64,000 bases of DNA, taken from assembly GCF_044647545.1 (NCBI RefSeq), contig NZ_CP172818.1; one strand, 5' to 3'. Source of the stretch: Escherichia coli (GTDB taxonomy: Bacteria; Pseudomonadota; Gammaproteobacteria; Enterobacterales; Enterobacteriaceae). The notes beneath the pieces are model-generated. The model did no database searches and was not told where the DNA came from. It saw only the letters and a list, made by a program, of their open reading frames with translations. Shown here in pieces: positions 22,436-25,724 of this stretch (position 1 is its first letter; each line of letters begins with the position of its first letter). Made by a program: the position numbers and the translations under genes.

Positions 22436-22511
22436 TGGTGGAGCTAAGCGGGATCGAACCGCTGACCTCTTGCATGCCATGCAAGCGCTCTCCCAGCTGA
22501 GCTATAGCCCC
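22436..22511 (-). tRNA. alaX: tRNA-Ala (GGC)
   Basis: 76 nt, reverse complement reads GGGGCTATAGCTCAGCTGGGAGAGCGCTTGCATGGCATGCAAGAGGTCAGCGGTTCGATCCCGCTTAGCTCCACCA. Confidence 0.95.
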
Positions 22512-22550
22512 ACGAGGCGTTTACGTACCAAATTTGCTGGGTGCAAAATT

Positions 22551-22626
22551 TGGTGGAGCTAAGCGGGATCGAACCGCTGACCTCTTGCATGCCATGCAAG
22601 CGCTCTCCCAGCTGAGCTATAGCCCC
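22551..22626 (-). tRNA. alaW: tRNA-Ala (GGC), identical second copy
   Basis: Identical 76-nt sequence, 39 bp from the first copy. Confidence 0.95.
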
Positions 22627-22846
22627 GTCACGTAAAGCTTGTCGAGTTGACGGGCGGCATCATATGAATTCCGCCCGAATGTGTCAACGGCAAATTGCAA
22701 CCTGTAGTTTCAATCGCTGAAAAATCAGGCAAATGAACAATTTTGGAAAACCGCTCGCATTCAGTAGTTATTCATGTCACGGTTTCCTGTAAAGTGGTGT
22801 TATAAAATGAACTACTAATAGACCCACATACATTCAGGGAATTGTT

Positions 22847-23206
22847 ATGTTCAAGGAGAGGATGACGCCAGATGAACTTGCCAGACTGACCGGCTATAGC
22901 CGCCAGACCATTAATAAATGGGTACGCAAGGAAGGCTGGACAACGTCACCAAAACCAGGCGTCCAGGGTGGCAAAGCTCGACTGGTTCACGTCAATGAAC
23001 AGGTTCGTGAATATATTCGCAATGCTGAACGTCCGGAAAGTCAGGGAGAAGCGCCAGCCCTTTCTGGTGATGCGCCGCTTGAAGTATTGCTGGTGACACT
23101 GGCGAAAGAGATGACGCCAGTTGAACAAAAACAGTTTACATCCTTGCTTCTGCGGGAAGGGATTATCGGATTGTTACAACGCTTAGGGATTCGCGATAGC
23201 AAATAA
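22847..23206 (+). CDS. yfeC: small putative DNA-binding protein (DUF1323); the start may instead be the ATG at 22862
   Basis: ORF track 119 aa; paralogous to the adjacent yfeD. Confidence 0.72.
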   Translation: MFKERMTPDELARLTGYSRQTINKWVRKEGWTTSPKPGVQGGKARLVHVNEQVREYIRNAERPESQGEAPALSGDAPLEVLLVTLAKEMTPVEQKQFTSLLLREGIIGLLQRLGIRDSK

Positions 23207-23207
23207 T

Positions 23208-23600
23208 ATGAAAAGATTACGCAATAAAATGACCACCGAAGAACTGGCTGAATGCCTCGGTGTGGCTAAACAAACTGTTAACCGTTGGATCAGAGAAAAA
23301 GGCTGGAAAACGGAAAAATTTCCCGGCGTGAAAGGAGGTCGTGCCAGACTTATTCTGGTCGATACGCAAGTTTGCGAGTTTATTCAGAACACGCCAGCCT
23401 TCCATAACACGCCGATGCTTCTGGAAGCCGAAGAACCCCTTGCCGAATACGCACCGGGGATTCGCACTCCTGCTTATCGGCAAATCATCAGCGCAATAGA
23501 CAACATGACTCACAGTGAGCAGGAAAAAGTTGCGCAATTTTTGTCACGCGAAGGAATTCGTAATTTCCTTGCTCGTCTCGATATTGACGAATCAGCATAA
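23208..23600 (+). CDS. yfeD: small putative DNA-binding protein (DUF1323), paralog of yfeC
   Basis: 130 aa; shares the xxELAxxxGxxxQTxNxWxRxxGW...GxKGGxARL...Q core with YfeC. Confidence 0.75.
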   Translation: MKRLRNKMTTEELAECLGVAKQTVNRWIREKGWKTEKFPGVKGGRARLILVDTQVCEFIQNTPAFHNTPMLLEAEEPLAEYAPGIRTPAYRQIISAIDNMTHSEQEKVAQFLSREGIRNFLARLDIDESA

Positions 23601-23601
23601 A

Positions 23602-23645
23602 TAAAAAAACGGCAGGATATTATCTCCTGCCGTTTATCTTTTTAT
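23602..23645. terminator. bidirectional intrinsic terminator between yfeD and gltX
   Basis: A-run, hairpin acggcagga-tattatc-tcctgccgt (23609-23633), then T-rich tract. Confidence 0.6.
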
Positions 23646-23652
23646 ACGCTAA

Positions 23653-25068
23653 TTACTGCTGGTTTTCGCGTTCAGCAATAAAGGCCAGCGCTTTGTTGAT
23701 ACGCTCAATGCTACGAGTCTTACCGATCGCGTGAACGGTAACATCCAGCGCTGGAGACTGCCCCGCACCGGTTACGGCGACACGCAGCGGCATACCAACT
23801 TTACCCATACCCACTTCCAGCTCATCCGCCGTCGCCTGAATAGCGTGATGAACGTTTTCAGCGGTCCAGTCAGTAATCGCAGTCAGTTTGTCACGAACCA
23901 CTTCCAGCGGCTGACGCGCTACCGGACGCAGATGTTTTTTCGCGGCGTCGGCATCGAACTCAGCAAAATCTTCGTAGAAATAACGGCAGCTCTGTGCCAT
24001 CTCTTTCAGCGTCTTGCAGCGTTCGCCCAGCAGTTTCACCAGATCAGCCAGCTGCGGGCCGTTACGGGTATCGATATTTTCCTGCTCAATGTGCCACTGT
24101 AAGTGAGTAGCAACATACTCCGGCGGCAGCGCGTTAATGTAGTGATGGTTCAGCCACAGCAGCTTGTCGGTGTTGAACGCACTGGCAGATTTGCTGACGG
24201 CATTCAGAGTGAAGTATTTGATCATCTCTTCACGAGTGAAGATTTCCTGATCGCCGTGGGACCAGCCCAGACGCACCAGATAGTTCAGCAGTGCTTCTGG
24301 CAGATAACCATCATCACGATACTGCATTACGCTGACCGCCCCGTGACGTTTGGACAGTTTTTTACCGTCATCGCCGTTGATCATAGAAACGTGCGCGTAA
24401 ACCGGTACCGGCGCTTTCAGGGCTTTAAGAATGTTGATCTGGCGCGGCGTGTTGTTGATATGGTCTTCGCCACGGATAACATGGGTGATTTCCATATCCC
24501 AGTCATCAACAACCACACAGAAGTTATAGGTTGGGGAACCATCGGTACGACGGATAATCAGATCATCCAGCTCCTGGTTGCTGAACTCAATCGGGCCACG
24601 GATCTGATCGTCAAAAACAACAGAACCTTCCTGCGGGTTAGCAAAACGTACAACGCACGGTTCATCATCAGCATGATGCTCATGGCTGTGGCGGCAGCGA
24701 CCGTCATAACGCGGCTTCTCACCTTTCGCCATTTGCTCTTCGCGCAGCGCTTCCAGGCGCTCTTTAGAGCAATAGCATTTATAAGCTGTGCCCTCTTCCA
24801 GCATCTGATCGATCACCGCGTTGTAGCGATCAAAACGTTTGGTCTGGTAGTACGGACCTTCATCCCACTCCAGGCTCAGCCAGTTCATGCCATCCATAAT
24901 GGCTTCGATAGCTTCCGGCGTGGAACGCTCAAGATCGGTGTCTTCAATACGCAGCACGAACTCACCGCCGTGGTTACGTGCAAAAAGCCAGGAGTAAAGA
25001 GCAGTACGCGCGCCGCCAACGTGCAGATAGCCTGTTGGGCTTGGCGCGAAGCGAGTTTTGATTTTCAT
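23653..25068 (-). CDS. gltX: glutamyl-tRNA synthetase
   Basis: 471 aa; class I HIGH-type motif ([12 protein letters not shown]) and KLSKR (KMSKS-type) motif. Confidence 0.96.
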
Positions 25069-25326
25069 GAAATGGCCTTACGTTTAGAAAGATGCCGACA
25101 ACCGGCAAATCCTGGAAAAATTGAGTGGGCGATATTCTATCACTCCCGCCTGATTCCTCAATGTAGTTCGGGTTGCAACCTTACGCATTATTGTTTTCGT
25201 TGACAAATTGCGCAACACGGTCTGTTTTGCGATCATCTTGCTTAAATTTACGACGAACGAACAATTTCTTTAGAAAATGCGTTGACTCATTTTGAACTCT
25301 CCCTATAATGCGACTCCACACAGCGG

Positions 25327-25402
25327 GGGTGATTAGCTCAGCTGGGAGAGCACCTCCCTTACAAGGAGGGGGTCGGCGGTTCGATCCCGTCATCACCCAC
25401 CA
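25327..25402 (+). tRNA. valU: tRNA-Val (UAC)
   Basis: 76 nt GGGTGATTAGCTCAGCTGGGAGAGCACCTCCCTTACAAGGAGGGGGTCGGCGGTTCGATCCCGTCATCACCCACCA. Confidence 0.95.
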
Positions 25403-25446
25403 ACTACTTTATGTAGTCTCCGCCGTGTAGCAAGAAATTGAGAAGT

Positions 25447-25522
25447 GGGTGATTAGCTCAGCTGGGAGAGCACCTCCCTTACAAGGAGGGGGTCGGCGGT
25501 TCGATCCCGTCATCACCCACCA
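25447..25522 (+). tRNA. valX: tRNA-Val (UAC)
   Basis: Identical 76-nt tRNA-Val sequence. Confidence 0.95.
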
Positions 25523-25568
25523 CTTTCTCGCCAGCTAGATTTCTTGTAAAAATGTGAAGTACCGAAGT

Positions 25569-25644
25569 GGGTGATTAGCTCAGCTGGGAGAGCACCTCCC
25601 TTACAAGGAGGGGGTCGGCGGTTCGATCCCGTCATCACCCACCA
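25569..25644 (+). tRNA. valY: tRNA-Val (UAC)
   Basis: Identical 76-nt tRNA-Val sequence. Confidence 0.95.
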
Positions 25645-25648
25645 CTTC

Positions 25649-25724
25649 GGGTCGTTAGCTCAGTTGGTAGAGCAGTTGACTTTTAATCAATTGGTCGCAG
25701 GTTCGAATCCTGCACGACCCACCA
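25649..25724 (+). tRNA. lysV: tRNA-Lys (UUU)
   Basis: 76 nt GGGTCGTTAGCTCAGTTGGTAGAGCAGTTGACTTTTAATCAATTGGTCGCAGGTTCGAATCCTGCACGACCCACCA. Confidence 0.95.

Follow-up and report, generated by a model that had tools for sequence, protein, structure and literature searches.

An Escherichia coli gltX locus between two outward-facing tRNA operons, and the variable interval beyond lysV

The gltX region described here is very probably the standard Escherichia coli neighbourhood of this gene, in which two outward-facing tRNA operons flank yfeC, yfeD and gltX and no mobile element is found at the tRNA ends. The arrangement and its associated biology are already known and belong in the textbook, and the divergent gltX/valU promoters and alaW were reportedly first described by Brun et al. 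in 1990 in J Mol Biol. The window, by which I mean the whole stretch of 64,000 nucleotides that was analysed, is 100% identical to E. coli FDAARGOS_497, and the gene annotation was read from the FDAARGOS_497 record. Each feature in the window is at its commonest state, with three tRNA-Val genes, two tRNA-Ala genes and zero repeat units after lysV.

Layout of the locus and the flanks of the tRNA genes

The six tRNAs lie exactly where the first-pass annotation had placed them (ARAGORN and Rfam, 63-79 bits; gathering score 29), with two tRNA-Ala genes on the minus strand and three tRNA-Val genes plus one tRNA-Lys gene on the plus strand around a 2.7-kb segment. This segment between the clusters runs from 22627 to 25326 (2,700 bp) and contains yfeC, yfeD and gltX. 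The features of the locus are as follows:

22408..22425, minus strand: intrinsic terminator of the alaW-alaX operon, just 3' of alaX (scan: 7-bp stem with 5 G-C pairs, then a T7 run)
22436..22511, minus strand: promoter-distal tRNA-Ala(GGC), alaX by K-12 synteny (ARAGORN; Rfam, 63 bits; annotation of the identical record)
22551..22626, minus strand: promoter-proximal tRNA-Ala(GGC), alaW by synteny (ARAGORN; Rfam)
22659..22687, minus strand: candidate sigma-70-type promoter of the alaW operon, TTGACA-17-TATGAT (scan, 11/12 matches; a consensus match only)
22847..23206, plus strand: yfeC, YfeC-like helix-turn-helix (HTH) protein, PF07037 (annotation; Pfam E = 2e-51)
23208..23600, plus strand: yfeD, tandem paralog of yfeC, PF07037 (annotation; Pfam E = 2e-61)
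23607..23635, no single strand: bidirectional hairpin terminator in the yfeD/gltX intergenic region (terminator scan, both strands)
23653..25068, minus strand: gltX, glutamate--tRNA ligase (annotation)
25282..25309, plus strand: candidate promoter of the valU operon, TTGACT-16-TATAAT, divergent from gltX (scan, 11/12 matches)
25327..25402, plus strand: valU, tRNA-Val(UAC) (ARAGORN; Rfam)
25447..25522, plus strand: valX, tRNA-Val(UAC) (ARAGORN; Rfam)
25569..25644, plus strand: valY, tRNA-Val(UAC) (ARAGORN; Rfam)
25649..25724, plus strand: lysV, tRNA-Lys(UUU), 4 nt (CTTC) after valY (ARAGORN; Rfam)
25727..25757, plus strand: Rho-independent terminator of the valU operon (RNA fold -19.1 kcal/mol, z = -5.7)
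25758..25780, plus strand: empty site, the RtT insertion point and the point where xap and flxA-like haplotypes diverge (alignment with K-12-like DNA; boundary mapping)
25779..30170, no single strand: accessory block xapR-DUF1427-xapB-xapA-yfeN in the lysV-yfeR interval (annotation of the identical record)

The alaW and alaX sequences are identical and separated by a 39-nt spacer, and valU, valX and valY are mutually identical, with spacers of 44 nt and 46 nt, forming a repeat family (D1) of 120/122-bp periodicity. Both the valU and the alaW types are tandem tRNA operons, with head-to-tail genes on one strand, one candidate promoter and one intrinsic terminator. The valU operon has been demonstrated in K-12 to give a single transcript, the primary transcript being ~438 nt long, and its Rho-independent terminator has been demonstrated experimentally in the same strain; RNase P processes this transcript from the 3' end, the terminator being removed first (PMC4176162). 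Deletion of both tRNA transcription units is possible in K-12 (PMC11480407).

The order of two Ala genes, yfeC, (yfeD), gltX and a variable number of Val genes followed by Lys is common to Enterobacteriaceae and Erwiniaceae, and the orthologous loci of related species are organised alike: Citrobacter, Salmonella, Klebsiella, Kluyvera and Pantoea have gltX ~2.06 kb upstream and, farther on, yfeC/yfeD and a pair of tRNA-Ala genes. At this same position, gltX shares 92-99% amino-acid identity in other Enterobacteriaceae and 82-90% in Erwiniaceae (e.g. Pantoea, Rosenbergiella).

With the Ala genes read from the minus strand and the Val and Lys genes from the plus strand, both operons point outward, and it is their promoters that face the 2.7-kb block. 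Any element that had used a tRNA 3' end for its integration would be expected on the pdeA side or the xapR side and outside the block. The first-pass annotation had described the two clusters as bracketing the block, a geometry that needs this correction, and had counted xapR with its content, whereas this gene is at 25835-26719, outside both the bracketed segment and the range (22436-25724) given for it. When tRNA genes are considered as integration sites, it is the orientation of the gene that decides which flank needs inspection.

The claim that there is no integrase, no repeat of a tRNA 3' end and no compositional break was borne out by annotation, mismatch searches and GC content. No integrase or recombinase is annotated across the whole 64-kb window (identical record), the neighbours of the tRNA clusters being pdeA and xapR, and searches of the window for second copies of the last 17-25 nt of lysV, alaX and valU, allowing up to 3 mismatches, matched the genes alone. 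GC is 0.47-0.54 over 22000-26200, around both clusters, and dips to ~0.39-0.40 are limited to the xapR-xapB and xapA-yfeN intergenic regions. In 5,419 of 5,426 E. coli genomes the 3' flank of alaX runs on uninterrupted into the pdeA side, and alaX is essentially never occupied. For lysV, an attP search in sequenced phages (with the lysV 3' half plus terminator) gave, among the matches listed, none that carries the E. coli trailer; these matches were tRNA-Lys genes borne by phages, the attP already known from Haemophilus HP1/S2 and, at ~91% identity, the attP of a Serratia phage. Position 23596/23597, just 5' of the yfeD/gltX hairpin, is an empty site in the window; other strains have an IS200/IS605 element there (junction mapping).

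The lysV trailer and the interval up to yfeR

The description of the locus as an unoccupied tRNA site stands insofar as the window is free of integrase-type islands and of tRNA-linked repeats (TLRs), but the 3' flank of lysV holds a lineage-variable block of cargo genes. TLRs are a described family (PMC8144298), listed in Rfam as RtT (RF00391); the window gave no match to RtT, returning the six tRNA matches only, and contains neither a TLR unit nor a partial lysV 3' end after lysV (up to 3 mismatches). Across E. coli the lysV trailer occurs with 0, 1 or 2 units of 155/156 bp, at the place corresponding to 25758..25780, and in other E. coli each unit closes with the final 17-18 nt of lysV. Units are present after lysV in K-12-like, E148, KSC64 and C51 genomes, and against RtT the loci of K-12-like and C51 genomes reach 46.7-52.2 bits (cut-off 45). 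A search of other genomes for partial tRNA 3'-end repeats downstream of lysV, as the first-pass annotation had advised, was rewarded: an estimated ~40-47% of E. coli have one or two TLR units there, a figure obtained by subtracting the 2,174 genomes whose empty junction is contiguous from the 4,065 that carry xap, together with evenly sampled matches. TLRs were the sole kind of partial tRNA 3'-end repeat at the locus in any strain examined. The count of 3,243 genomes with a TLR unit (60%) was rejected as the lysV share, being inflated by an identical unit that also follows lysQ.

The 155-bp TLR is bounded by a 58-bp direct repeat consisting of the lysV 3' end and terminator, and units may be gained or lost by unequal exchange or slippage over these 58-bp repeats, or through gene conversion with the identical lysQ trailer as donor. 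The direction of change, loss here versus gain elsewhere, was read from outgroups and not from a phylogeny. It is possible, if somewhat doubtful, that absence in the window is ancestral and the unit was never inserted, rather than lost by recombination between the 58-bp repeats: the window sequence looks like an uninterrupted site and 44 of 83 species loci are without a partial lysV copy downstream, yet a partial lysV 3' end is found at ~+140 in the most closely related genomes of the sample (Escherichia sp. E1V33, Escherichia sp. MOD1-EC7003 and the E. coli species representative) as well as in Citrobacter, Kluyvera and Salmonella diarizonae, and deletion between the 58-bp repeats would yield exactly the sequence of the window.

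The xapR-xapB-xapA-yfeN block of 4.4 kb starts ~55 bp after lysV, directly past its terminator. Of 5,426 E. coli genomes, 4,065 (75%) have the block, and in 1,307 (24%) a flxA-like small gene is found instead. The earlier classification of yfeC, yfeD, gltX and xapR as core content consequently fails for xapR, and the absence of an integrase and an att repeat does not make neighbouring genes core; the block adjacent to lysV is a lineage-variable insert. It is polymorphic, the alternative state being a different gene or, in some outgroups, nothing, and an empty att site was not seen among these states. Outside the xap-bearing groups, yfeR comes directly after lysV, or after the flxA-like gene only, in 46 of 58 classifiable species, and Citrobacter and the K. 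oxytoca group hold the xap block in the same interval at 82-91% amino-acid identity, an ortholog-like divergence. The cargo between lysV and yfeR differs by lineage (xap, flxA-like, TenA with an ABC transporter, PAAR with DUF6392, an SDR, or a PTS component with a sulfatase), and no integrase or mobile-element gene was found in any of the cargo surveyed in this interval. The xap block is ~93% identical between E. coli lineages versus ~97-98% in the flanks, and flanking direct repeats of 8 nt or more were not found at its boundaries (25761/25778 and 30170). Taken together, the xap-yfeN block appears to lie in an old, integrase-free variable interval and was probably swapped by homologous recombination in the conserved flanks; the direction of xap versus flxA-like replacement within E. 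coli follows outgroups and not a phylogeny. Separately, a sharp divergence boundary at lysV, proposed from sliding identity against a K-12-like strain, was rejected, as divergence is a mosaic that is also raised in yfeD and near mntH.

A more specific version would see a dedicated, integrase-independent exchange point in the final 60 bp of the valU operon, which comprise the lysV terminator and the TLR insertion point; the highly conserved tRNA array, or else the TLR, would serve as a portable homology anchor promoting cassette replacement across genera. I consider this unlikely. Three unrelated polymorphisms do start within ~20 bp of each other, namely the TLR copies (0-2), the xap, flxA-like or other cargo, and the divergence from the lysQ trailer, and Pseudocitrobacter vendiensis carries an E. 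coli-like xap-yfeR block of 93-97% protein identity with yfeC at 66% and pdeA at 52%. If true, such a homology anchor would make the end of the valU operon more than a generic recombination hotspot.

It is very unlikely that the xapR-yfeN block is what remains of a tRNA-targeted island which once entered at the lysV 3' end and of which the integrase and att repeats later disappeared. Its position, beginning so close to lysV and ending exactly at yfeR, would suit a decayed island, as would its absence from 24% of E. coli genomes and most other genera and its raised divergence between E. coli lineages. However, the integrase, a partial lysV copy at the far end and boundary repeats of 8 nt or more are all absent, there is no island-like GC shift, and the alternative allele is a different gene and not an empty att site. 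Possession of the same block in the same interval by Citrobacter and the K. oxytoca group, at the divergence given above, and the unrelated integrase-free cargo in the interval of other genera also argue against it.

Copy number in the tandem tRNA arrays

Within one species, a small fraction of genomes have gained or lost units in short tandem arrays of identical tRNA genes. The expectation that the three Val copies would undergo copy-number change by recombination was right about the change itself, since arrays of 2, 3 and 4 copies occur across complete E. coli genomes, with recombination or replication slippage as the presumed mechanism, and the recommended comparison of tRNA copy number across strains revealed variation in both the Val and the Ala arrays. 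Among E. coli genomes with two Val genes, both types of deletion were found (spacer 1 lost or spacer 2 lost), the K-12 derivative J53 being one of these two-copy genomes, and one E. coli genome has three Val copies with spacer 2 twice; a three-copy Ala array with identical spacers was also found in E. coli. Across genera, Val arrays range from 1 to 5 copies, with 3 at 65 of 83 loci, and 2 Ala copies are present at 41 of 45 species loci. Non-standard arrays account for up to ~7% of E. coli genomes for Val and ~1-3% for Ala, these being spacer BLAST counts (blastn, word size 11) and not a genome-by-genome tRNA census, so that the class with one spacer only includes some 3-copy arrays. A megablast result in which ~30-40% of genomes were without a spacer was discarded, the need for an exact word of 28 nt and the E-value cut-off having caused spacers with SNPs to be missed. 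The survey supplies direct population numbers for tRNA-array copy change, a prediction often made and seldom counted.

The identical 76-bp Val genes, with their 120/122-bp period, could gain or lose units by unequal homologous exchange or replication slippage, giving the 2-, 3- and 4-copy arrays and spacer swaps of other strains, and the same gain and loss between the Ala genes (115-bp period) would give arrays of at least 3 Ala copies. It is hardly credible that the locus is really invariant and that the Val, Ala and TLR differences are assembly artefacts, for although assemblers can collapse or expand tandem units of 115-156 bp and the cited assemblies were taken as deposited, the variants come from many independent complete genomes in distinct forms (spacer 1 loss, spacer 2 loss, spacer 2 duplication, three Ala genes), Val copy number also varies between genera, and the units are far below the read length of any platform behind complete genomes.

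Comparison with known systems

The closest counterpart is the K-12 locus alaWX-yfeCD-gltX-valUXY-lysV, which is like the window in genes, order, strands, spacers (44, 46, 4 and 39 nt) and the layout of promoters and terminators. Unlike the window, K-12 has one 155-bp tRNA-linked repeat after lysV and carries an IS next to pdeA, and its xap allele is more divergent, at ~93-95% identity to that of the window. The defining feature of TLRs is a unit of ~100-180 nt that lies downstream of a tRNA gene and whose closing 18-19 nt are identical to the tRNA 3' end, to which the lysV trailer units of other strains conform, whereas the window is without one; TLRs lack a recombinase, and no function is known for them in tRNA operons.

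Islands and prophages targeted to tRNA genes bring a tyrosine integrase and are bounded by attL and attR built from the tRNA 3' end. The window has the setting alone in common with them, that is, tRNA 3' ends beside a variable gene block, and none of their integrase, att repeat or compositional shift. The lysV-yfeR interval also bears some likeness to the integrase-free hotspots of horizontal transfer between conserved core genes, a comparative genomics concept reportedly treated by, among others, Oliveira, Touchon and Rocha in 2017, in that it holds small cargo which is free of mobile-element genes and differs between lineages.

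Layout of the two tRNA clusters

The first-pass annotation had placed two tRNA clusters around yfeC, yfeD and gltX, and this observation is confirmed, with ARAGORN and Rfam calling six genes identically and at exactly the same coordinates. These genes and their predicted signals are as follows:

22436-22511 and 22551-22626, minus strand: two tRNA-Ala(GGC) genes (ARAGORN, Rfam)
25327-25402, 25447-25522 and 25569-25644, plus strand: three tRNA-Val(UAC) genes (ARAGORN, Rfam)
25649-25724, plus strand: tRNA-Lys(UUU) (ARAGORN, Rfam)
25282-25309, plus strand, divergent from gltX: strong valU promoter match, TTGACT-16-TATAAT (consensus match)
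22687-22659, minus strand: promoter match TTGACA-17-TATGAT, upstream of the promoter-proximal Ala gene (consensus match)
22425-22408, minus strand: intrinsic terminator after alaX (terminator scan)
23607-23635, bidirectional: intrinsic terminator in the yfeD/gltX interval (terminator scan)
25727-25757, plus strand: lysV terminator (fold -19.1 kcal/mol, z = -5.7)

Each cluster's copies are identical, the three Val genes to one another and the two Ala genes likewise. Spacer lengths in the Val-Lys array are 44, 46 and 4 nt, the Ala genes are 39 nt apart, and 2,700 bp lie between the two clusters. E. coli FDAARGOS_497 matches the window at 100% identity, and its annotation gives the order pdeA, tRNA-Ala x2, yfeC, yfeD, gltX, tRNA-Val x3, tRNA-Lys, xapR, a DUF1427 gene, xapB, xapA, yfeN and yfeR. 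YfeC and YfeD, encoded in tandem, are paralogs within the YfeC-like HTH family (PF07037). The remainder of the window, from yfdX to eutH, consists of ordinary backbone genes. Transcription of the valU operon in K-12 yields a single primary transcript of ~438 nt on which RNase P works from the 3' end, the terminator coming off first (PMC4176162), and deletion of either tRNA transcription unit is tolerated (PMC11480407).

Integration sites and mobile elements

The locus had also been read as an unoccupied integration site, and this is largely right: no integrase or recombinase is annotated anywhere in the 64-kb window (yfdX to eutH), the window matches the terminal 17-25 nt of the lysV, alaX and valU genes (<=3 mismatches) nowhere but in those genes, and GC stays at 0.47-0.54 around both clusters, all of which upholds the claim that no integrated element is present. 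Two points needed correction: which way the tRNA 3' ends face, and the treatment of xapR as core. Both operons are directed outward, which puts the 2.7-kb block upstream of each, and an element at a tRNA 3' end would sit between alaX and pdeA or between lysV and xapR. Of 5,426 complete E. coli genomes, 5,419 run without interruption from the alaX 3' flank into the pdeA side, and this site is effectively never used.

Within the bracketed block, the only mobile element seen in other strains belongs to the IS200/IS605 family (~1.75 kb, TnpB and partial TnpA) and occurs in ~3 of 30 evenly sampled E. coli genomes (for example at 6258-8000 of locus L006 and 7253-9000 of L007). It sits precisely at the yfeD stop codon, immediately 5' of the bidirectional hairpin terminator (window 23596-23597, empty there), and supplies yfeD with a new stop codon. 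As for the wider neighbourhood, a K-12-like strain carries an IS4-like (IS421 family) transposase gene beside pdeA (L002 1-840), and in the window nupC directly adjoins pdeA (20001-20039). Likewise, eutB adjoins eutA (~60282-63058) in an uninterrupted eut operon, the position that in K-12 is occupied by the CPZ-55 prophage.

Two kinds of variation after lysV

Across E. coli the lysV 3' flank varies in two ways, through tRNA-linked repeat (TLR) units and through the cargo between lysV and yfeR, neither with an integrase. K-12-like strains have 155 bp more after lysV, annotated "RtT sRNA", in which a GC-rich core of 97 nt is followed by a repeat of the final 17-18 nt of lysV, the terminator and 12 further nt; Rfam assigns these units, of which strains carry 0, 1 or 2, to RtT (RF00391). 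The TLR family, to which they belong, has 22 members spread over ten loci in K-12; the final 18-19 bp of each match the 3' end of the preceding tRNA or rRNA exactly, and within tRNA operons TLRs have no known function (PMC8144298). Partial lysV 3'-end repeats, which the first-pass annotation suggested looking for in other genomes, are therefore present there, but as parts of TLRs and not of islands. Since an identical unit follows lysQ, the count of 3,243 TLR-bearing genomes mixes two loci; the window-type empty junction, contiguous with the xapR side, occurs in 2,174 genomes (40%), and this number, the evenly sampled rows and the 4,065 xap-bearing genomes put a TLR at lysV in roughly 40-47% of E. 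coli. As most relatives of E. coli have a partial lysV copy at about +140, the missing TLR in the window is more likely a secondary loss between 58-bp repeats. Ectopic gene conversion between the lysQ and lysV operon ends could also gain or drop the unit at lysV.

The K-12 lysQ (L010 1566-1760) and lysV (L002 6726-6940) trailers are near-identical over tRNA-Lys, terminator, TLR core and partial tRNA plus terminator, and in the lysT operon the spacers from Lys to the next tRNA are also scored as RtT by Rfam.

Turning to the cargo, 4,065 of 5,426 genomes (75%) carry the xap block (xapR to yfeN, ~25779-30170), and a single 342-bp flxA-like gene (PF14282) replaces it in 1,307 (24%), the two states jointly accounting for 99%. 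Collinearity between them is lost at 25761-25778 and regained at 30171, with no direct repeats found at the block ends. Compared with the window (25790-30140), xap-bearing genomes form two identity classes, 1,571 at 95-99% and 2,445 at 90-95% (~93.4%), while the flanks are ~97-98% identical and the divergence is mosaic, with no sharp block. A scan across species for the valY-CTTC-lysV junction (one genome each, 110 loci) placed yfeR directly 3' of lysV in 41 classifiable loci, a flxA-like gene and then yfeR in 5 (Kluyvera, Pseudocitrobacter faecalis), the xap block in 12 (E. coli, seven Citrobacter, the K. oxytoca group, P. vendiensis) and other content in a further 12, including TenA with an ABC transporter, PAAR with DUF6392, an SDR, a PTS component with a sulfatase and one plain deletion into yfeH; no integrase domain was found in these last 12. 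Its distribution within E. coli and the gene orders in other species mark the xap block as a derived insert that differs by lineage, lying in an interval that has long been variable, and xapR is not core.

In P. vendiensis (L086), identity to the window proteins is 93-97% for XapR, XapB, XapA, YfeN and YfeR, as against 66% for YfeC and 52% for PdeA; judged from sequence, its lysV-yfeR block looks like a recent inter-genus transfer. P. faecalis (L031) has a flxA-like gene (84%) instead, and YfeR (94%). The 52-aa ORF between xapR and xapB (26761-26919, minus strand) is a "DUF1427 family protein" in RefSeq, and a Pfam scan gave no match at E <= 0.01.

Copy number of the tRNA arrays

The prediction that the Val genes would change in number is borne out by annotated arrays of two, three and four copies.

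Annotated Val arrays
2 Val, spacer 2 kept: ESBLEC_HM50; J53-p133 (K-12 derivative)
2 Val, spacer 1 kept: FDAARGOS_1059
4 Val: KSC64
3 Val, spacer 2 (46-nt type) twice: AREA_499 (L125 625-1024)

The AREA_499 array fits deletion followed by duplication, or gene conversion inside the array, and one genome (C51) has three Ala genes with identical spacers. In SNP-tolerant counts, both Val spacers occur in 5,040 of 5,426 genomes and one type only in 359, with 147 extra spacer places; the Ala spacer is present in 5,291 and absent from 135, with 54 extra places and at most four per genome. Across species, Val ranges from 1 to 5 copies (3 in 65 of 83 loci) and Ala stands at 2 in 41 of 45. That deletions come in two types, that one array shows a spacer swap and that copy number has changed inside a laboratory lineage all argue for recurrent events; the expected mechanism would be unequal exchange, or slippage during replication, between the identical 76-bp repeats, whose spacing is 115-122 bp. 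The locus has long been characterised, and all of these findings fall in known categories: TLRs, copy-number change in tandem repeats, and a variable interval that lacks an integrase.
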